Source: a virus (lineage: Duplodnaviria; Caudoviricetes). From it: DNA of 56,480 bases. The notes beneath the pieces are model-generated. The model was not told the origin of the DNA. It was given only the letters and a program-made list of their open reading frames with translations, and did not search any database. Shown piece after piece: positions 15,981 through 46,919 of the stretch. The position numbers and the translations under genes are program-made. The DNA lies in IMG/VR virus record IMGVR_UViG_3300022200_000053, positions 1 to 56,480 of that record; one strand, 5' to 3'. The first letter of the stretch is position 1; each line of letters begins with the position of its first letter.

Positions 15981-16193
15981 ATGGAAGCTGGTAAGCGCCA
16001 AAAACGGGTCGAAGCCCTAGAGGCAATTAAAAACGAAGCATTAAGACGTGCGCGAGAAGGAGAAGACTCCCTTGAGGTGCGTGATTTTGTAACTTCGGCC
16101 AAAAAAGAACTAGCTTATGAGCTGCCTGACGAGGAAGCATTTAAAAAAGCAATGAATGCAACGCTCGCATACAAGGCAAAGAAGGAAAAATAA
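15981..16193 (+). CDS. Hypothetical protein
   Basis: 70-aa charged ORF followed by an intrinsic terminator. Confidence 0.6.
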   Translation: MEAGKRQKRVEALEAIKNEALRRAREGEDSLEVRDFVTSAKKELAYELPDEEAFKKAMNATLAYKAKKEK

Positions 16194-16217
16194 TAAATTT
16201 TTAAAACATTGATTAAC

Positions 16218-16244
16218 GCCGGGGAGAAAGACCCCGGCTTTTTT
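16218..16244 (+). terminator. Rho-independent terminator
   Basis: GCCGGGG-agaaaga-CCCCGGC hairpin followed by TTTTTT. Confidence 0.85.
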
Positions 16245-16637
16245 GTTTAAATTTTTGGGTAAAACGTCATTTTTACCTACAAAAGTGCGTTTTTACCTTC
16301 AAAGTTAGGCCCTTTATAGCTCCAAATAGGGGATAAAATTACCTGACGCATCTCACACCCGCCCACCGATTGGGAATGCGTAGGGAAAAAAAGAAATGCG
16401 GAGTGTTACCCATGATACACCCCCAAATCTACAGAGAAGAACGTCAGGAAATGCTAACAATTCCCCTCTGATTCGCGCGGAACCCCCAAATCGCGCTCCC
16501 TGACTGGAGTTTGCAGAAGCAGACTGTTGTCTAAAGGGAGCTTGGGTTAATACCCGACGAAGAAGATCGGGATTTAGAGCAGTAACTGTCGTCGAGCTGG
16601 ACGTTAAACGTAGCATTGTTCACTCGCATTCAACACC

Positions 16638-16883
16638 ATGAACAAGACCAACAAGATGGCGATGGAAGCCAAAGCGAAAGCTGAGGCAATGGGTTGGGAA
16701 GCTCGGGTTCAACTGGACCAGAGCGACGTTCTCGACATGGCAACGGTGGTTGCTTGGAAGAAGGGAGCAACAGATGAGAGCCCAGCTCGCTACATCCGAT
16801 TCACGGAAGAACGGGAATCGGTTAGAGGTTGGGTTCTAGTTAAGCACGCAATGATCAAGCTGGATTATTGCAACTGTTACTGA
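16638..16883 (+). CDS. First early-region hypothetical protein
   Basis: 81 aa; its stop codon lies in the first family-A repeat. Confidence 0.6.
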   Translation: MNKTNKMAMEAKAKAEAMGWEARVQLDQSDVLDMATVVAWKKGATDESPARYIRFTEERESVRGWVLVKHAMIKLDYCNCY

Positions 16884-16950
16884 TAGCTGGTGCGAAGGGA
16901 GGTTCGATTCCTCCCATCAGACTTGCCCTCAGCGGAGATGGGCACCGCAC
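16880..16950 (+). repeat. Family A element 1 (tRNA-elbow mimic plus TGCCC/GGGCA domain)
   Basis: CTGAT/ATCAG outer stem and GGGAGG-TTCGATT-CCTCCC T-arm, then TTGCCCTCAGCGGAGATGGGCACCGCAC; identical to copy 4. Confidence 0.9.
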
Positions 16951-16964
16951 AACAGGAGATTCCA

Positions 16965-17159
16965 ATGAAGGTTTCTTTTCCCGTTGCATTGACTGCATTC
17001 ATTGCAGTTCCTCTTGCGATCCAAGTTGTTTCTGCAGTGGCTGTATTACCAGCTCTGGAGAAGGCGACGACAGAACAGTGCAAGACCCATGATTGGCCTG
17101 CTCACCAGCATGCTGCTCACATGGATTTCTGTACTAGCAACGGCTACCCAACCAACTGA
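16965..17159 (+). CDS. Small membrane-anchored protein, paralog of 17693-17872
   Basis: AGGAG RBS; TM helix followed by L(E/D)KATxEQCxTHDWP...CxxNGY. Confidence 0.75.
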   Translation: MKVSFPVALTAFIAVPLAIQVVSAVAVLPALEKATTEQCKTHDWPAHQHAAHMDFCTSNGYPTN

Positions 17160-17232
17160 GTACAAGGCGTGATGCCGGGGGATCGAATCCCCTACTCAGT
17201 TATTGCCCAGTACGCAGAGATGGGCACTGCAC
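17154..17232 (+). repeat. Family A element 2
   Basis: AACTGAGTA/TACTCAGTT stem, GGC-GTGAT-GCC hairpin, GGGGG-ATCGAAT-CCCCT arm, then TGCCC...GCAG.AGAT.GGGCA.CTGC. Confidence 0.9.
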
Positions 17233-17247
17233 AATCAGGAGATCCCT

Positions 17248-17388
17248 GTGGGTTACAAGCATCTTTCGGCGGTAGAGCGCCGCATCGTTTTCCAGACCTG
17301 GAAAGCATGGCAGCTTTATCCGGTGCCAAAGCACTGGGTACAGCAGGCCATCCAGGAAGCCCTGATTAATTTCAGGTCTCCCAACTGA
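17248..17388 (+). CDS. Small hypothetical protein
   Basis: GTG start after an AGGAG RBS, between two family-A elements. Confidence 0.6.
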   Translation: MGYKHLSAVERRIVFQTWKAWQLYPVPKHWVQQAIQEALINFRSPN

Positions 17389-17459
17389 TCCGTAAAAGCG
17401 GTCATCCCCGGTGCAATGCCGGGGTCAGTTATTGCCCCCAGCGGAGATGGGCACCGCAC
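17383..17459 (+). repeat. Family A element 3
   Basis: AACTGA/TCAGTT stem, CCG-TAAAAG-CGG hairpin, CCCCGG-TGCAATG-CCGGGG arm, then the conserved 3' domain. Confidence 0.9.
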
Positions 17460-17472
17460 CACGGAGCAACTC

Positions 17473-17610
17473 ATGGCTATCCGTAAGAACCTTGCCAAGA
17501 CCCTGATCAACGCCGCCAAGGCGGTGGAGAAGGATCAGACAAAAGAACGCATCCAGAAATGGGTGCATGACTCAAGGTTCAAGCTTGCAAAGGTTATTGA
17601 ACCTAACTGA
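17473..17610 (+). CDS. Small basic hypothetical protein
   Basis: MAIRKNLAKTLINAAKAV...; GGAG RBS. Confidence 0.65.
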   Translation: MAIRKNLAKTLINAAKAVEKDQTKERIQKWVHDSRFKLAKVIEPN

Positions 17611-17677
17611 TAGCTGGTGCGAAGGGAGGTTCGATTCCTCCCATCAGACTTGCCCTCAGCGGAGATGGGCACCGCAC
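17607..17677 (+). repeat. Family A element 4
   Basis: Exact copy of element 1. Confidence 0.9.
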
Positions 17678-17692
17678 AACCAGGAGTTTCCT

Positions 17693-17872
17693 GTGACCAA
17701 GCTTATTGCTTCCTACGTAATCATTGCCGCATTCATCATGGGCATTGGTGGACAGATTATTGTTCACCAACTGGACAAGGCTACGGCTGAGCAATGCCGT
17801 ACACACGACTGGCCGAAGGAGGCCGACCAGATCCACAGGGACTGGTGCATTGGTAACGGCTACCAGATCTAG
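17693..17872 (+). CDS. Small membrane-anchored protein, paralog of 16965-17159
   Basis: GTG start with AGGAG RBS; LDKATAEQCRTHDWP...CIGNGY. Confidence 0.75.
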   Translation: MTKLIASYVIIAAFIMGIGGQIIVHQLDKATAEQCRTHDWPKEADQIHRDWCIGNGYQI

Positions 17873-17946
17873 CTGATCCGTTAAAGCGGGTTGGGAGGTG
17901 CGAACCCTCCCACAGTTATTGCCCTTAGCGGAGATGGGCACCGCAC
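17870..17946 (+). repeat. Family A element 5
   Basis: CCG-TTAAAG-CGG hairpin, TGGGAGG-TGCGAAC-CCTCCCA arm, conserved 3' domain. Confidence 0.9.
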
Positions 17947-17960
17947 ACTAACTCAGCTCA

Positions 17961-18149
17961 ATGGACATCCTCTACTTCACCCTGACCACCGAAGATGCTG
18001 TCTACAAGTTCCAGGTCAACAAGGCAGAGAACTTGGTGCGTGTCACCAAGATGATTCTCAAGAACAAGTGCTTTGGAGAGTGGCATCGTTCCACGTCAAT
18101 GACTGTAGACGCAGGGCGAAAGCTCGTGCGTCAACTACAGGCCAGGTGA
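17961..18149 (+). CDS. Small hypothetical protein
   Basis: 62 aa between family-A elements. Confidence 0.65.
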   Translation: MDILYFTLTTEDAVYKFQVNKAENLVRVTKMILKNKCFGEWHRSTSMTVDAGRKLVRQLQAR

Positions 18150-18217
18150 GTATAGCTCCCAAGCCAGGTGCAATGCCTGGCTCTGGTCATTGCCCCCAGC
18201 GGAGATGGGCACCGCAC
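18140..18217 (+). repeat. Family A element 6
   Basis: GGCCAG/CTGGTC stem, GAG-TATAG-CTC hairpin, AGCCAGG-TGCAATG-CCTGGCT arm, conserved 3' domain. Confidence 0.85.
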
Positions 18218-18233
18218 ACTCGGAACTAACAAC

Positions 18234-18425
18234 GTGTTCTTCGTTGTTCTCAACAACCAGCAGCACAGTGCACACTTCTGCCAAGAAGATGCGTACATCG
18301 AAGCTGCTCAACTGGACCACATGCTCAACTCTCCAGAGTTGAACGATGGAGTCCAGAACTTCAACGAGGTATCCGTTCTCTCCTTCGTGGAGATGATGGA
18401 GTCTCCGGTTGAGATGGTCATCTGA
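18234..18425 (+). CDS. Small acidic hypothetical protein
   Basis: GTG start, between family-A elements. Confidence 0.55.
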   Translation: MFFVVLNNQQHSAHFCQEDAYIEAAQLDHMLNSPELNDGVQNFNEVSVLSFVEMMESPVEMVI

Positions 18426-18492
18426 CCAGGCGTGATGCCGGGGGATCGAATCCCCCACTCAACCATTGCCCCCACGGGAGATGGGCACCCAC
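18407..18492 (+). repeat. Family A element 7 (near-cloverleaf)
   Basis: GGTTGAG/CTCAACC 7-bp stem enclosing TGGTC..GACCA, GGC-GTGAT-GCC and GGGGG-ATCGAAT-CCCCC hairpins; 3' domain carries the GGG/CCC variant. Confidence 0.85.
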
Positions 18493-18506
18493 ACATGGAG
18501 AGATCC

Positions 18507-18809
18507 ATGCACGTCTACCAGCTTACCGAGAATCCTCGTGATTCGTTTTACGGTGGCGATGATTTGTCCACTGTCATCGGTTATTACGCTTCTAAGCGTA
18601 AAGCAGATGCCAAGGCTGTAGAGCTATCAGCTCGACAAGCTAAGGAAGAAGAGCTGGATTGGATTACCAATCCTTGCGAATGCGGTGATCGCCAGTGTGA
18701 TCGCCGTGACAAGTTCTTCACATCTTGGCATGTGGACAGAATTGATCTAACTGAGTTGTCGATGCGGCGACTCATGGAGATCGAGTTGGCTGATGCCGAC
18801 GAAGACTGA
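18507..18809 (+). CDS. Hypothetical protein with a CxC-x4-C cluster
   Basis: GGAG RBS; MHVYQLTENPRDS...PCECGDRQC. Confidence 0.65.
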   Translation: MHVYQLTENPRDSFYGGDDLSTVIGYYASKRKADAKAVELSARQAKEEELDWITNPCECGDRQCDRRDKFFTSWHVDRIDLTELSMRRLMEIELADADED

Positions 18810-18879
18810 TCCGTCAAAGCGGGTGACCAGGTGCAAACCCTGGTCCAGTTATTGCCCCCAGCGGAGATGGGCACCGCAC
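18804..18879 (+). repeat. Family A element 8
   Basis: CCG-TCAAAG-CGG hairpin, GACCAGG-TGCAAAC-CCTGGTC arm, conserved 3' domain. Confidence 0.9.
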
Positions 18880-18893
18880 ACCAGGAGTTTCCT

Positions 18894-19088
18894 GTGGACC
18901 AAGCTCTTGCTTACACTCTTGAAGTGCTGATCTCCCTTCGTGAGGCAGCAATTGAAGATTGCTGTCAGAGAATGGTTAGCCATGAAACCTGCATGGCCGA
19001 GATGGTTGATCGTTTCATTAAGGCTAATGATCCGAATGGTGAGATTGCCAGGAAGGTCTATGCCTCAATGTTTAGGTCAGACCACTAA
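18894..19088 (+). CDS. Small hypothetical protein
   Basis: GTG start after AGGAG. Confidence 0.6.
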   Translation: MDQALAYTLEVLISLREAAIEDCCQRMVSHETCMAEMVDRFIKANDPNGEIARKVYASMFRSDH

Positions 19089-19089
19089 T

Positions 19090-19159
19090 TAGCTGATCCG
19101 TTAAAGCGGGAGGCAGGGTGCGATCCCCTGCCCAGTTATTGCCACCCACCGAGGGTGGC
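19090..19159 (+). repeat. Family A element 9 (divergent 3' hairpin)
   Basis: CCG-TTAAAG-CGG hairpin and GGCAGGG-TGCGATC-CCCTGCC arm, then GCCACCC-ACCGA-GGGTGGC. Confidence 0.85.
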
Positions 19160-19171
19160 TTACACAAGATC

Positions 19172-19432
19172 ATGCAACCTCTAATCTATCAACCCAAGCA
19201 CGAACATAAGTATCGTGTCGCATGGTATGGCAGTAGCACCCAGCTTCACTTCCAGAAGTACTGCTTAGTTGCCACGCCTGATTTTGATGGAGATTACGAG
19301 TGGATCGACATCGATGTCCGTAATCTCATGGGTGGCCTTCCGAATGGTGTTAAGGAATTGCACCAGGAGATGGAAGATTATTACAACTATGGCATAGTCC
19401 AGGAACAGGACTATGCTGCATCACTTGTCTAA
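19172..19432 (+). CDS. Hypothetical protein
   Basis: MQPLIYQPKHEHKYRVAW..., downstream of element A9. Confidence 0.65.
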   Translation: MQPLIYQPKHEHKYRVAWYGSSTQLHFQKYCLVATPDFDGDYEWIDIDVRNLMGGLPNGVKELHQEMEDYYNYGIVQEQDYAASLV

Positions 19433-19457
19433 CAATCTAGCCTTTTATTTCAGTTAA

Positions 19458-19673
19458 TTGATCATGCAACGTAACGAATTTGTTGACGCTTGTGTTGCTA
19501 TTGTCATTGGCACTGGTAGTGGCTTACTCCTATCTGTTGGAGCACAGAAGTCGCTCAACAACCACTACAAAGCAACGTGCAATGACAGACCAGGACACAA
19601 CCTTGTCTACGCCCACGGACTCTTAGGTGATACTTACTATTGCGTTAAGAGTAAGTACGTAAGTATCAACTGA
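19458..19673 (+). CDS. Small membrane protein
   Basis: N-terminal hydrophobic helix. Confidence 0.55.
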   Translation: MIMQRNEFVDACVAIVIGTGSGLLLSVGAQKSLNNHYKATCNDRPGHNLVYAHGLLGDTYYCVKSKYVSIN

Positions 19674-19674
19674 T

Positions 19675-19720
19675 CTCTGCTCTAAGGGGCTTCGGCCCTT
19701 TACTGCAGGGTTCTCCTGCA
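19675..19720 (+). repeat. Family D element 1 (UUCG hairpin plus second hairpin)
   Basis: AAGGGGC-TTCG-GCCCTTT followed by TGCAGG-GTTCT-CCTGCA. Confidence 0.6.
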
Positions 19721-19748
19721 TCCACTCAACTCAACCCAAGCTAGTTCC

Positions 19749-19988
19749 ATGAACTACCAAGCTGTTGAACATCTCCTCACCCAGGATGCTCGTCTCCTGG
19801 CACGTCGAGATTCTCCTGTCATTGACCAAGAGCTGGAAGAACAGCGTCAAGCTGCACTCGATCTCTTCTTCCAGTGGCAGGATGGTATGTGTCAGTTCCA
19901 AGAGCTGATGCCATTCGTTGCTATCATCCAACGCAAGGTGGATCTCAACAGAGATCTGCTGCGTTGGGAACGTAAGCATGAAGACTGA
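19749..19988 (+). CDS. Hypothetical protein
   Basis: 79 aa with a C/A-rich leader. Confidence 0.65.
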   Translation: MNYQAVEHLLTQDARLLARRDSPVIDQELEEQRQAALDLFFQWQDGMCQFQELMPFVAIIQRKVDLNRDLLRWERKHED

Positions 19989-19989
19989 A

Positions 19990-20038
19990 TCCTGATCGGA
20001 GGGGCTTCGGCCCTTCCCACCAGGACTCAATATCCTGG
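19990..20038 (+). repeat. Family D element 2
   Basis: GGAGGGGC-TTCG-GCCCTTCC followed by CCAGGA-CTCAATA-TCCTGG. Confidence 0.6.
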
Positions 20039-20063
20039 GCACTAAACCCATTGTTACTACGGA

Positions 20064-20330
20064 ATGGCAATTTCAATTGACTACCACGACATCACAGCAG
20101 CTTGTGAAAAGTTCAGGCTTAAGCCCACAGATTATTACCTTGAATTCAACGATCAAGTTGTTTATATGTACTGGGTTGCATGCCCAGTTGATATATATGA
20201 CTACATGAAAGGTGATATGACGTGCCTTGATTTTCAACGTAAAGGCAAGTGGCTCAGCTTTGAAGAATGCTCTGATCAATATGAAGAGCGTCCATTCACA
20301 AACATGCGTTACATCCTGGAGACTATCTGA
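20064..20330 (+). CDS. Hypothetical protein
   Basis: 88 aa. Confidence 0.6.
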   Translation: MAISIDYHDITAACEKFRLKPTDYYLEFNDQVVYMYWVACPVDIYDYMKGDMTCLDFQRKGKWLSFEECSDQYEERPFTNMRYILETI

Positions 20331-20531: not shown

Positions 20532-20571
20532 ACCTGGGCATCACACGATCACGTGTGTGTAAGTCCCAGGT
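20532..20571 (+). repeat. Family B element 1
   Basis: ACCTGGG-CAT-[CACACG ATCA CGTGTG]-TGTAAGT-CCCAGGT. Confidence 0.9.
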
Positions 20572-22832: not shown

Positions 22833-22902
22833 CATCATAACACTTCTGTAGTATTGGTTGGTATTGGTCATTAGGCAATACATGCCAATACTACAGTCCA
22901 CA

Positions 22903-22940
22903 CCTGGGCATCCACCTATCATGGTGGTGTAAGTCCCAGG
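22903..22940 (+). repeat. Family B element 4
   Basis: CCTGGG-CAT-[CCACC TATCAT GGTGG]-TGTAAGT-CCCAGG. Confidence 0.9.
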
Positions 22941-25428: not shown

Positions 25429-25580
25429 TTGGCTTCTCAATTGAATTCAAGCGTTGGTATGTGATTGTACGTGGTCCCAAAGGACGTACGTACTTGGCAA
25501 CTGGTTTTGCTAAATGCATGCCAATCATCACACCAACCGGTACCTACACCATTGATCAATACTTAGGACAGTAATGATCA

Positions 25581-25608
25581 CGTCCTGGGCATGACGTTAA
25601 ACTGTCCA
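25581..25608 (+). repeat. Family C pseudoknot 1
   Basis: CGTC-CT-GGGCA-T-GACG-TTAAAC-TGTCC. Confidence 0.9.
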
Positions 25609-25630: not shown

Positions 25631-25831
25631 ATGCAATTCCAAATTACCAAAATACACTTTGATTTGGATTCTAATGATTTAATTCAGCAACCAAATCTTC
25701 AAGAAAGTTTACAAGAAGAATATGTTGGTCAAATTTGGGAAGCAGACGACGAAGATGACTTAGTTGAAGAGCTAACCTGTGCAACAGGCTGGTGCATTAA
25801 GTCTATAGATTATCGTCACATTCTCAATTGA
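25631..25831 (+). CDS. Small acidic cyanophage-type hypothetical protein
   Basis: WEADDEDDLVEELTCATGWCIKSIDY motif. Confidence 0.7.
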   Translation: MQFQITKIHFDLDSNDLIQQPNLQESLQEEYVGQIWEADDEDDLVEELTCATGWCIKSIDYRHILN

Positions 25832-25836
25832 CCAAC

Positions 25837-25864
25837 CGTCCTGGGCATGACGTTAAACTGCCTA
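25837..25864 (+). repeat. Family C pseudoknot 2
   Basis: CGTC-CT-GGGCA-T-GACG-TTAAAC-TGCCT. Confidence 0.9.
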
Positions 25865-27650: not shown

Positions 27651-27890
27651 ATGCTCTGTTTATCTATGCCTGATTACACAGACGATCAGCTACTTGCCAT
27701 GGCTATGGCAAATCTTGGAGAGTACATCCATGAAAACTCACCTCGTTATGTATTAATTGAAGATCCTCGCAACGAGGATGACTACGATAGCTGGACTTAC
27801 GGAATGGAAGTCCTGCCGCAAGATCACACTTGGCAGTCAACATCAATTGATGTTGATGTAAGTCCAAGTGATGCAGATATGGCGGAATAG
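27651..27890 (+). CDS. Acidic hypothetical protein
   Basis: Likely start is MPDYTDDQ; the 3' end overlaps element B7 and the tRNA. Confidence 0.45.
   Translation: MLCLSMPDYTDDQLLAMAMANLGEYIHENSPRYVLIEDPRNEDDYDSWTYGMEVLPQDHTWQSTSIDVDVSPSDADMAE
27827..27870 (+). repeat. Family B element 7 (directly 5' of tRNA-Leu)
   Basis: CACTTGG-CAG-[TCAACATC AATT GATGTTGA]-TGTAAGT-CCAAGTG. Confidence 0.8.
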
Positions 27891-27958
27891 GTAGACGCAA
27901 CGGACTTAAAATCCGTAGGCCACTGGCCGTGAGAGTTCGAGTCTCTCTATCTGCACCA
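27873..27958 (+). tRNA. trnL: tRNA-Leu(TAA)
   Basis: GCAGATA/TATCTGC acceptor stem, GGTAGACGC D-arm, ACGGA-CTTAAAA-TCCGT anticodon arm, long variable arm, GTTCGAG T-loop and encoded CCA. Confidence 0.95.
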
Positions 27959-31423: not shown

Positions 31424-31720
31424 ATGAAAGGTTTTAATTCAACAAAGCAATCCACCCGCTCTTCTTCCTATTGGGTTGCATCTTACACAAAAGATAACGA
31501 AGATGAACCACTTGGTATCCACAAGAAAGTTTTGTCTTATAAACCAGGGCAAGACAAAGAAGCTTTGATGACTAAGTACTGTCACTCACTTATGAAACTT
31601 AATCCACACGTATGGGAAGTCTTGGTGCACCAGGGGCCATCTGAGATTCCGAACTCAGGTGATCAGATCGTGATCAGACTATCCCGTGAACCCTTCAAGG
31701 GATGCTCTGAACTGAGGTAA
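31424..31720 (+). CDS. Hypothetical protein
   Basis: 98 aa. Confidence 0.6.
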   Translation: MKGFNSTKQSTRSSSYWVASYTKDNEDEPLGIHKKVLSYKPGQDKEALMTKYCHSLMKLNPHVWEVLVHQGPSEIPNSGDQIVIRLSREPFKGCSELR

Positions 31721-31725
31721 ATTAT

Positions 31726-31753
31726 GGACCTGAGCATGTCCTTAAACTGCTCA
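31726..31753 (+). repeat. Family C pseudoknot 3
   Basis: GGAC-CT-GAGCA-T-GTCC-TTAAAC-TGCTC, with compensatory changes in both stems. Confidence 0.9.
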
Positions 31754-34644: not shown

Positions 34645-35142
34645 ATGGGCTACCACATTTATTTGAAACCTTTACCAAGCAAAGAAATGTTGCACAGAAT
34701 TTTGCAATATGAAAAAGAAACTGGATATCTTTACTGGAAAAAAACTGGAAAACTTGTAAAAGCCTGCGCTAAAGATTTGGAGAATAAATATAAACGAATA
34801 ATGATTGATAAAGAACATTACGTATTACATCGCATTATCTATCAAATGCATTATGTGGATTTGAAAACAGATGAAGTAATTGATCACATTGATAGGAATA
34901 AACAAAACAATAGAATTGAAAACTTAAGAAAAGTTAATGTTTTTATTAATAATCAAAACCAGGGAAATCGCAAAAACAATACATCTGGATATAAAGGAGT
35001 TTCTTGGTCAAAGCAAAAACAAAAGTGGCGTGCAACAATCACAGTTAAAAGAAAACATAAAACGCTTGGATTTTTTACTACCAAAGAAGAAGCTTTTGAA
35101 TGTTACAAAAAAGCTAAACAAGCATTTCACTCTTGCGTTTGA
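34645..35142 (+). mobile_element. HNH/AP2 homing endonuclease gene inserted at the polA 3' end
   Basis: HRIIY...IDHIDRNKQNNRIENLR and NTSGYKGVSW...KWRA AP2-like domain; AT-rich. Confidence 0.9.
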
Positions 35143-35187: not shown

Positions 35188-35367
35188 ATGGACCTTGAAC
35201 CAAAAAACTTTATTAACATTCAACCATCAACATTAAAGATTGTATGCCCCAAACATGGAACGCATTCTCAATATATTGAAAGCACAATCCAAGGTCATGA
35301 GGGTTATTGGTGCATGATCTGTTGGCTGGAAACTCTTGGTGATTCACTTCCCGTTGTAAAAGAATGA
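35188..35367 (+). CDS. Small Zn-binding protein (59 aa, not in ORF track)
   Basis: IVCPKHG...YWCMIC. Confidence 0.6.
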   Translation: MDLEPKNFINIQPSTLKIVCPKHGTHSQYIESTIQGHEGYWCMICWLETLGDSLPVVKE

Positions 35368-35372
35368 TTACA

Positions 35373-35399
35373 CGTCCTAAGCATGACGTTAAACTGCTT
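35373..35399 (+). repeat. Family C pseudoknot 4
   Basis: CGTC-CT-AAGCA-T-GACG-TTAAAC-TGCTT. Confidence 0.9.
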
Positions 35400-36502: not shown

Positions 36503-36728
36503 TCAGTTCACTCTCCTTTACGAGGATGAGCACACCAAAGTTCTTTATGAATTTAAAGGTGTTGTTGCAGATGATGTCATTACGCACATCATTGATTTCT
36601 TAAAAGGCTGTGGCTATTGCGAGCACTCTATTTATTCAGTGATGCAAGATGCAGCCGAAGCTTATTTTGAAGCTCAGCAACCATTAAGATTTCCTGCACA
36701 ACAGGATGATCTCATTGGTCTCGACTGA
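36486..36728 (+). CDS. Hypothetical protein
   Basis: DFLKGCGY motif common in phage hypothetical proteins. Confidence 0.65.
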   Translation: MTPTHDQFTLLYEDEHTKVLYEFKGVVADDVITHIIDFLKGCGYCEHSIYSVMQDAAEAYFEAQQPLRFPAQQDDLIGLD

Positions 36729-36733
36729 TAATA

Positions 36734-36761
36734 CGTCCTGGGCATGACGTTAAACTGCCCA
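36734..36761 (+). repeat. Family C pseudoknot 5
   Basis: CGTC-CT-GGGCA-T-GACG-TTAAAC-TGCCC. Confidence 0.9.
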
Positions 36762-39931: not shown

Positions 39932-39949
39932 TCACGTCTTCCAAGGGAC

Positions 39950-39977
39950 CGTCCTGAGTATGACGTAAAACTGCTCA
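39950..39977 (+). repeat. Family C pseudoknot 6
   Basis: CGTC-CT-GAGTA-T-GACG-TAAAAC-TGCTC. Confidence 0.9.
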
Positions 39978-46848: not shown

Positions 46849-46919
46849 TCGGGATGGAAGGTACTGCCCCTTCTCCTTTGCGTCCCAAACGCAATGTGAT
46901 ACTTTTCTACTACATCCCG
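46849..46919 (-). tRNA. trnP: tRNA-Pro(TGG) with atypical D and T loops
   Basis: CGGGATG/CATCCCG acceptor stem with discriminator A, TTGCG-TTTGGGA-CGCAA anticodon arm, GAAGG-GGCAGTA-CCTTC T-arm. Confidence 0.8.

Follow-up and report, generated by a model that had tools for sequence, protein, structure and literature searches.

The early gene array and its repeated element

The window analysed here is the complete IMG/VR record IMGVR_UViG_3300022200_000053, a stretch of 56,480 bases estimated to be 71% complete, from a lake cyanophage of the Caudoviricetes whose sole relative among isolated phages is the 79-kb Synechococcus phage S-EIVl, which came from a lake in the High Arctic. Its left arm, terminase included, is encoded on the minus strand. 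The rightward arm begins at 16638 with about eleven small open reading frames (ORFs) of 45-100 amino acids, 3′ of which lie the replication genes ThyX, DNA polymerase A, SSB and primase. The subject of this report is a small RNA element of two interlocking helices, called the knot below, that is repeated on the plus strand between consecutive small ORFs. A strong terminator at 16218-16238 is the only one in the interval 16000-20200, so none falls inside the array; the same interval holds no sigma-70-like promoter against a mean of 3.9 in shuffled sequences, and none of the 20 large window ORFs that were scanned looked like an RNA polymerase. The small-gene array therefore looks like one transcript made by the host.

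A preliminary description of this DNA had reported eight plus-strand copies of the form TGCCC-N3-5-GCGG-AGAT-GGGCA-CCGC-AC within 16923-18879, and eight copies are indeed present, from 16924 to 18879 (Table 1). The pattern TGCCC-N2-6-GAGATGGGCA has seven exact matches on the plus strand (copies 1 and 3 to 8) and a mean of 0.00 matches in 100 dinucleotide shuffles. Copy 2 is retrieved with the core pattern AGATGGGCAC, and there are no further copies elsewhere in the 56.5-kb record. The altered second helices of copies 2 and 7 and the plain hairpin that replaces the knot at copy 9 are as described. In a related locus (L187) the orthologue of copy 7 carries the canonical GCGG/CCGC, and the copy 9-type hairpin has a covarying version in S-EIVl; the folding z-score of the whole copy 9 element is -3.36. 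The location just upstream of a ribosome-binding site, also reported, applies to the six copies that are followed by GGAG and fails for copy 5, which has no Shine-Dalgarno sequence, and for copy 6, which has only GGAA. Copies 1 and 4, together with their upstream modules (16880-16953 and 17607-17680), are 100% identical over 75 nt. They precede paralogous genes for small membrane proteins (16965-17159 and 17693-17872) that share a ...KAT.EQC.THDWP... motif, also found in S-EIVl; here gene and leader were duplicated as one cassette.

Fold and covariation of the knot

The knot is a self-contained leader module of 26-31 nt, 27 nt in the canonical copies. Its first helix, S1, is a hairpin of 4-5 bp, (U)GCCC/GGGC(A), with a loop of 11-13 nt and no internal loop. 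In the second, S2, central bases of the S1 loop form 3-5 bp with the bases directly 3′ of S1. The first loop has 3 nt in most copies and at most 6, and a 4-nt linker separates the 5′ strand of S2 from the 3′ strand of S1. Variation is confined to the first loop, the partner letters of S1 and the inner and outer pairs of S2. Eleven letters are near-invariant, namely the G of the S2 closing pair, AGAU, GGGYA and the partner C, and they are followed by the AC tail; as judged from the aligned copies, this block forms a closed ring, held shut by the S2 closing pair, which is invariant. A GGAG inside the knot is not conserved, GCCGAGAU, GCAGAGAU and GCUGGGAU all being found.

The pairings were examined in a wider set of copies. 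An 18-base core pattern yielded a seed set of 99 copies on 82 IMG/VR contigs, and a covariance model, R1, was built that encodes S1 alone and leaves S2 unfitted. Its search gave 173 matches at E values up to 10 in 776 kb of seed loci, 164 of them at E <= 1.1e-5, and 65 additional matches in 427 kb of loci from later scans. Loci L009-L127, chance matches of a first IMG/VR pattern that was too loose, were left unused except for L084, a real element found independently. Alignment A2 contains 104 distinct rows with 98.2% of the cells paired; 69 cells are changed on both sides, compared with 20.1 +/- 3.0 after shuffling. In alignment A3, with 53 distinct rows, 96.4% of the cells are paired and 61 are changed on both sides against 13.9 after shuffling. 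None of 500 shuffles reaches the observed count in either alignment, and slid registers pair only 22-42% of the cells in A2 and 23-43% in A3.

The substitutions fall in both helices. The second pair of S1 is G-C in 69 rows, A-U in 34 and G.U in 1, and its top pair is C-G in 66, U-A in 21 and U.G in 16, with one mismatch; more extensive variants read UGCUU/AAGCA (one copy) and UACCU/AGGUA (others). S2 varies at its two inner pairs, giving GCGG/CCGC, GCAG/CUGC, GUGG/CCAC, GCCG/CGGC, GAGG/CCUC and GGGG/CCCC, and its outer pair is altered in single copies, CCGG/CCGG and AGGG/CCCU. Forms with five pairs also occur (GCAGG/CCUGC, GCUGG/CCAGC and GUAGG/CCUAC). MAFFT and the model misalign these, so that they were scored as unpaired and the pair counts are conservative.

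Searches that left one strand of S2 free lead to the same result. Two IMG/VR scans required a changed 5′ strand and left the inner 3′ positions open; 60 of the 63 matches are fully paired, two of the 60 via U.G, and the other three stand outside any element context and resemble chance matches. A metagenome scan with both inner S2 positions free gave 136 distinct matches (80 loci of at least 120 contigs), 129 of them paired, and all seven exceptions lie in unrelated sequence. All these search patterns were anchored on the conserved core and miss more divergent relatives. Overall, the 230 model rows contain 199 that are distinct with their flanks; 197 could be parsed (194 scored by script, three read by eye), and S2 is complementary in every one. 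The two unparsed rows are a deletion variant and an S1 variant already given above. G.U or U.G pairs occupy covarying positions in 18 cells of A2 and 12 of A3; these would be C.A mismatches on the other strand and the copies are co-oriented with the genes, which places the pairing in the plus-strand RNA. The substitution patterns thus identify S1 and S2 as real pairings at the RNA level. Both pairings had been put forward in the preliminary description, to be abandoned if a larger alignment lacked covariation; the larger alignments, and the free-strand scans with them, retain it.

The same description doubted a classical H-type geometry, given that no linker separates GGGCA from CCGC, and helix geometry leads to the same view. 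In each of the 157 distinct rows that A2 and A3 contain, the 3′ strands of S1 and S2 are 0-1 nt apart; they abut directly unless the outermost S1 pair is lost, in which case 1 nt intervenes. This U-A pair is missing where the knot has no tRNA-like neighbour, although its A is retained, and the core S1 stem is thus 4 bp long with a junction of 0-1 nt. With so short a junction, A-form geometry would bar coaxial stacking of the full S1 and S2, whichever came first. Four related variants have a linker shortened by one letter (GAU), a changed last letter of S1 (GGGCU) and no outermost S1 pair, so that one nucleotide is in effect moved from linker to junction. These variants, which possibly go back to a single evolutionary event, hint that both helices form at once.

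tRNA-like neighbours, leader context and distribution

Upstream of the knots stand modules that mimic the top half of a tRNA. A T-arm-like hairpin (at least 5 bp, with a 7-nt loop NNCRANN) ends 7-10 nt 5′ of S1 in 178 of 193 usable contexts, its commonest T-loop-type loops being UGCAAAC and AUCGAAU. It stacks on an acceptor-like stem, and of 177 copies of this stack 89 measure 12 bp and 146 measure 11-13 bp; twelve base pairs is the length of the acceptor-plus-T stack that tRNA end-processing enzymes measure. TGA serves as the upstream stop codon in 137 of 174 cases, and in 118 of 165 the stop codon shares bases with the 5′ strand of the acceptor-like stem. In eight of the nine window elements the spacer between this stem and S1 is 1-3 nt. 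The knot thus begins close behind the stacked acceptor-like stem and T-arm mimic, a position that fits a proposed cut 3′ of the mimic. ARAGORN does not call the 5′ modules of the window as tRNAs, and the T-arm of the copy 1 mimic gives a weak Rfam match to the T-arm of cyano_tmRNA (E 8.4).

Every knot copy is co-oriented with the gene 3′ of it. The distance from the AC tail to the start codon is 11-18 nt (mode 14) in 77 of 87 called starts, and nine of the ten remaining starts are upstream in-frame ATGs within a start-codon hairpin. In the window as well as at many related loci, Shine-Dalgarno sequence and start codon are often enclosed in a third small hairpin, which tracks the start codon: CAGGA...TCCTG/GTG, CACGG...CCGTG/GTG and CATGGA...TCCATG/ATG. 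Some knot-led leaders have no Shine-Dalgarno sequence at all.

The leader module itself is interchangeable. Comparison of ten window proteins (g1-g10) with all loci by tblastn shows that orthologous genes are led by the knot, by a GCCACCC-type hairpin, by a GCCAC-AAUCCC-GUGGC hairpin, by a motif resembling coremin (a plant-virus RNA discussed below) or by other folds; after the tRNA mimic, three of the module types share the initial AUUGCC. For example, the window gene at 17473 is led by a knot and its S-EIVl orthologue (43% identity over 44 amino acids, E 1e-10) by a plain hairpin. That orthologous genes swap module types favours a general structural task at the 5′ edge of the cistron over an operator specific to one gene.

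Other repeats occupy similar places. The D4 family (six copies) consists of a GUC-N8-GAC hairpin followed by GUUAAACUGC; its copies precede replication genes and a variant precedes the first early gene. In the window and in relatives this coremin-like family shares the leader slot of the knot. The intergenic families D11 (GGGGCTTCGGCCC hairpin followed by CTGCAGG) and D13 (ACCTGGGCATC...GTAAGTCCCAGG) reappear in relatives as alternative leaders of orthologous genes.

At least 125 contigs of IMG/VR carry the knot, as do at least 120 from metagenomes. Among isolated phages it is found in S-EIVl alone, as one copy, and it was not found in plasmids. In 185,579 species genomes there were 28 exact matches, about the estimated chance number, of which the sole real element lies on a small contig of a metagenome-assembled genome from a pond (L220). 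Two Hydrogenophaga matches (L221, L233) have the 19-base core after a GCCCC-GCA-GGGGC hairpin in the same conserved context and without the 5′ strand of S1; they probably reflect chance together with shared ancestry of the locus. An unrelated phage (G001, locus L183) of 41.6 kb, with direct terminal repeats, 66.5% GC and a myovirus-like structural module, carries four knots near its left end that have the same core and a simpler upstream hairpin. They precede small ORFs rich in Gly-Asp-Gly-Tyr repeats just 5′ of the portal and head genes (G001:C1:600-2400). No protein similarity to the window is detectable in this phage (460 ORF queries, best E 0.002), and since the knot occurs there nonetheless, sequence comparison points to no phage-encoded binding protein shared by the two. 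A metagenome scan for relatives of the high-GC element found none, and copies that lack the leading U, sought in IMG/VR, turned up at 10 loci that add no further lineage.

Rfam scans of the whole window at gathering thresholds, and of 16500-20200 at E values up to 10, returned no knot or ribozyme family, only chance-level matches and the weak cyano_tmRNA T-arm; literature searched for S-EIV1, for tRNA-like processing of phage mRNA and for the motif letters contains no description of the knot. The knot is real and is uncatalogued in Rfam and in that literature, the comparison with exoribonuclease-resistant RNAs (xrRNAs) drawing on the text of the papers.

Three further features of the window stand apart from the array. 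ARAGORN and Rfam agree on a tRNA-Leu(UAA) gene, Rfam alone reports a second tRNA match (42.3 bits), and an HNH endonuclease with an AP2 domain, probably a homing endonuclease, is encoded directly 3′ of the DNA polymerase A gene.

Table 1. Knot copies, tRNA-like modules and other features of the window
Feature	Positions	Strand	Description
Knot copy 1	16924-16950	+	S1 TGCCC/GGGCA, loop TCA, S2 GCGG/CCGC, AGAT linker, AC tail; start codon 14 nt 3′; 48.3 bits
Knot copy 2	17204-17232	+	S2 GCAG/CTGC (compensated); first loop AGTAC, 5 nt; 40.3 bits
Knot copy 3	17433-17459	+	canonical; 53 bits
Knot copy 4	17651-17677	+	canonical; with tRNA-like module identical to copy 1
Knot copy 5	17920-17946	+	canonical; leader 3′ of it without Shine-Dalgarno sequence
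Knot copy 6	18191-18217	+	canonical; 53.7 bits
Knot copy 7	18467-18492	+	S2 of only 3 bp, GGG/CCC; first loop 4 nt; 39.9 bits
Knot copy 8	18853-18879	+	canonical; 54.6 bits
Copy 9	19141-19159	+	plain 7-bp hairpin GCCACCC-ACCGA-GGGTGGC in the same slot after the tRNA-like module
tRNA top-half mimic before copy 1	16880-16920	+	acceptor-like stem over stop TGA; T-arm GGGAGG-TTCGATT-CCTCCC; 3-nt spacer to S1
tRNA top-half mimic before copy 2	17154-17201	+	13-bp stack, loop ATCGAAT
tRNA top-half mimic before copy 3	17383-17430	+	12-bp stack, loop TGCAATG
tRNA top-half mimic before copy 4	17607-17647	+	identical to copy 1 mimic
tRNA top-half mimic before copy 5	17870-17918	+	13-bp stack
tRNA top-half mimic before copy 6	18140-18188	+	13-bp stack
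tRNA-like module before copy 7	18416-18459	+	T-arm intact; acceptor-like stem degenerate, 3 bp
tRNA top-half mimic before copy 8	18804-18850	+	12-bp stack, loop TGCAAAC
tRNA top-half mimic before copy 9	19090-19138	+	13-bp stack
Third hairpins burying Shine-Dalgarno sequence and start codon	18880-18897, 18494-18509		
D4 family	25566-25606, 25822-25862, 31711-31751, 35358-35398, 36719-36759, 39935-39975		six copies
D4 variant	16591-16614		
D11 family	19669-19709, 19984-20024		intergenic
D13 family	20532-20570, 22902-22940		intergenic
tRNA-Leu(UAA) gene	27873-27958	+	ARAGORN and Rfam
tRNA match	46849-46919	-	Rfam
HNH endonuclease with AP2 domain	34645-35142		

Possible roles of the knot

Several known systems resemble the knot in part. 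In a classical H-type pseudoknot two stems stack coaxially and the shallow groove of stem 1 is bridged by a loop that needs at least 2-3 nt; the corresponding third loop of the knot has 0-1 nt. The operator pseudoknot of the T4 gene 32 mRNA is of this H-type and serves one autoregulated gene. Like the knot it is small and lies in a phage mRNA leader 5′ of the ribosome-binding site, but the knot lacks a linker, recurs ahead of many unrelated genes and can be exchanged for hairpins. The promoter-early stem-loop (PeSL) cassettes of T4-type phages carry a sigma-70 early promoter beside the stem-loop in each repeat, in contrast to the array, which has no promoter-like site. The stabilizer stem-loops of ompA, papA and aprE are simple hairpins at primary 5′ ends of bacterial mRNAs. 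They place a stable structure near the ribosome-binding site, as the knot does, and within about 0-4 unpaired nucleotides of the 5′ end of the mRNA, which the knot would match only if the RNA is cut just behind the acceptor-like stem. Plain hairpins can replace the knot, which differs in its second interlocking helix, its conserved ring and a 5′ end that would arise by processing. In T7, RNase III sites between the early genes of a host-transcribed operon are cut and stabilize the messages. The knot elements are likewise structured and repeated between early genes, but they lack a long double-stranded stem, and their upstream half mimics the top half of a tRNA, thereby pointing to tRNA-processing enzymes and not to RNase III.

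The closest likeness is to the class 3 xrRNAs of plant viruses (dianthovirus/polerovirus type, xrRNA-D/LT). As the text of the papers describes them, these have coaxial P1 and P2 stems and L1 and L2B motifs that are >97% conserved (PMC6299227), and a J1/3 linker of 3-6 nt with a conserved AGY runs from P1 to the 3′ strand of the pseudoknot (PMC7668246). Unwinding of P1 lets a pseudoknot between the loop and the 3′ end close a ring around the 5′ end (PMC7668246, PMC11702639), and this unwinding is attributed, as a proposal, to the arriving exonuclease (PMC7668246, PMC11702639, PMC6299227). Measured against that text, the knot agrees in that the apical loop of a hairpin pairs with the immediate 3′ flank, in that stem and pseudoknot both covary, in that the closed form would exclude the full basal helix, which would have to open, and in its location upstream of the RNA that it would protect, which in class 3 is sometimes intergenic ahead of a coding sequence. 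By the same accounts it departs in having a single short stem in place of P1 and P2, no L1 or L2B motif, and 0-1 nt where class 3 has its AGY-containing J1/3 linker. The enzyme that the knot would have to resist is bacterial RNase J and not Xrn1. Coremin (xrRNA-C of beny- and cucumoviruses; PMC6546385, PMC10520033) is, in the text available, a similarly small viral RNA module with a presumed loop-to-spacer interaction. It is built of a 3-bp hairpin with a YGAD-type loop, a conserved 10-nt spacer (G12, U13U14, A15A16A17, C18U19, A20, C21) and a second hairpin (PMC6546385). The knot, with no GUUAAAC spacer, YGAD loop or second hairpin, belongs to a separate family by this description. The D4 family of the window approximates coremin: its spacer GUUAAACUGC matches the conserved one (PMC6546385), although its hairpin loop has 8 nt as against the 4 nt described for this Xrn1-stalling type. 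An interpretation of D4 as a promoter was dropped after this comparison. The knot thus lies outside the definitions of class 3 xrRNAs, coremin, H-type pseudoknots and promoter-stem-loop cassettes, and at most works like them.

The reading favoured here, at a probability of roughly 0.4, is by analogy with class 3 xrRNAs: the knot may be a 5′-end shield for processed cistrons. The early arm would be transcribed as one long RNA, and the short AU linker 3′ of each tRNA mimic would be cut by the host, either by an RNase Z-type tRNA 3′-end enzyme or by RNase E. The upstream message would be left ending in a tRNA-like fold, and a cut after the discriminator-like base would yield a downstream message that starts almost flush with S1. 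S1 and S2 would then shield its 5′ monophosphate end from RNase J and from 5′-end-dependent RNase E. Because the full helices could not stack coaxially without a linker, the knot is proposed to close when the outer pairs of S1 open, as in class 3 xrRNAs, or else to pack its helices side by side. A bolder version, in which the ring closes as RNase J itself opens the outer S1 pairs, would make the knot the smallest known exoribonuclease-resistant RNA and the first in bacterial mRNAs and, together with the mimic, a portable 'cut here, protect both ends' cassette; this version is doubtful.

A number of observations weigh against a 5′-end shield. In about 10 of the 193 contexts the knot follows no tRNA mimic: first-gene leaders have another hairpin (CUGCG...CGCAG) in its place, L270 an intrinsic terminator, and L267 and L185 a coremin-like motif directly 5′ of the knot. 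The knot is therefore independent of the proposed cut and does not always sit at a processing site; it is an independent 5′-leader module. First-gene leaders thereby carry an extra hairpin 5′ of the knot, and the knots of G001 have no AU linker. The fixed 14-nt distance to the start codon suits a role in translation equally well. At 26-31 nt the knot is far smaller than any proven xrRNA, sizes in the text of the papers being ~44-55 nt, and folding z-scores of single sequences are unremarkable (-0.4 to -1.4, and +0.2). The aligned rows are related, and the covariation counts are of cells and not of independent events.

The tightly fixed start-codon distance, the invariance of the unpaired AGAU and AC tail, the hairpin that follows many copies and buries the Shine-Dalgarno sequence and start codon, and the occurrence of copies before genes without a Shine-Dalgarno sequence would all suit a translational operator or standby element. 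The knot would then dock on the 30S platform or bind a host factor or early phage protein, with the letters of the ring as recognition surface, and would set or shut off the translation of each early cistron. This is unlikely, since the use of plain hairpins or unrelated modules by orthologous genes is hard to reconcile with a specific operator. Moreover, the high-GC phage with the same core has no protein in common with the window, the absence of the knot from cellular genomes speaks against mimicry of a host operator, and the GGAG inside the knot is not conserved. Somewhat less probable still is a folding insulator or two-state switch without cleavage, in which S1 and S2 alternate or lock the leader so that the ribosome-binding site folds alike whatever gene lies upstream. 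The steric conflict of the full helices, should they stack coaxially, the interchangeability of the modules as cassettes among unrelated small genes and the duplication of copies 1 and 4 along with their genes are in keeping with it. A simple insulator, however, requires neither a second covarying helix nor eleven near-invariant letters, and a switch has no evident trigger and is at odds with the GAU/GGGCU variants, which hint at simultaneous helices.

A role at the level of DNA, either as a recombination junction for the shuffling of gene cassettes, as has been proposed for the promoter-stem-loop cassettes of T4-type phages, or as the site of a DNA-binding protein, is highly improbable. The identical 75-nt element does flank paralogous genes, and cassettes do shuffle, as the differing leaders of orthologous genes across phages attest. 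Yet it is pairing and not sequence that is conserved, with G.U and U.G pairs that are mismatches on the other strand; all copies are oriented with the genes at a fixed distance from the start codon, and the promoter-like sites of such cassettes are missing from the array. Shuffling may all the same be a side effect. Least probable of all is a very small self-cleaving ribozyme that makes the cut beside the tRNA mimic. It would account for invariant unpaired letters within a pseudoknot adjoining a tRNA-like fold, and HDV-like (hepatitis delta virus-like) ribozymes do adjoin tRNAs in some phages. No Rfam ribozyme family is matched even at E values up to 10, however, the knot is smaller than every known class, plain hairpins substitute for it, and it is also found without the tRNA mimic.

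Other candidates were considered and rejected. A Shine-Dalgarno decoy or RegB-type site would need the GGAG that is not conserved. A small ORF starting at an internal ATG is contradicted by its unconserved reading frame and by the AGGCA variants, which lack that ATG. One minimum free energy fold pairs CCGC with a GCGG in the small hairpin of the tRNA-like module, and that hairpin is unchanged when S2 changes. The topologies of HDV-like, hammerhead and pistol ribozymes, for which the Rfam scans are the test, differ in helix order or core letters, and an acceptor pseudoknot of the turnip yellow mosaic virus type differs in loop lengths.

The knot is very small, abundant and strongly covarying, is coupled to tRNA-like punctuation and is interchangeable with coremin-like modules; for a structured leader of this sort the comparative evidence is exceptionally strong. 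A pseudoknot without a linker between its two 3′ strands is unusual, and its size suits nuclear magnetic resonance or crystallography. S-EIVl, which is isolated and carries one copy, offers a directly testable system, and the 27-nt knot is a candidate part for insulating or stabilizing genes in synthetic operons. To our knowledge, structures that stop 5′-3′ exonucleases come only from eukaryotic viruses, and we know of little beyond the RNase III sites of T7 on how the long, host-transcribed early messages of phages are partitioned and stabilized. If the knot does act as a 5′-end shield, these phages would turn one long early transcript into stable single-gene messages by means of a cassette of tRNA mimic and knot.

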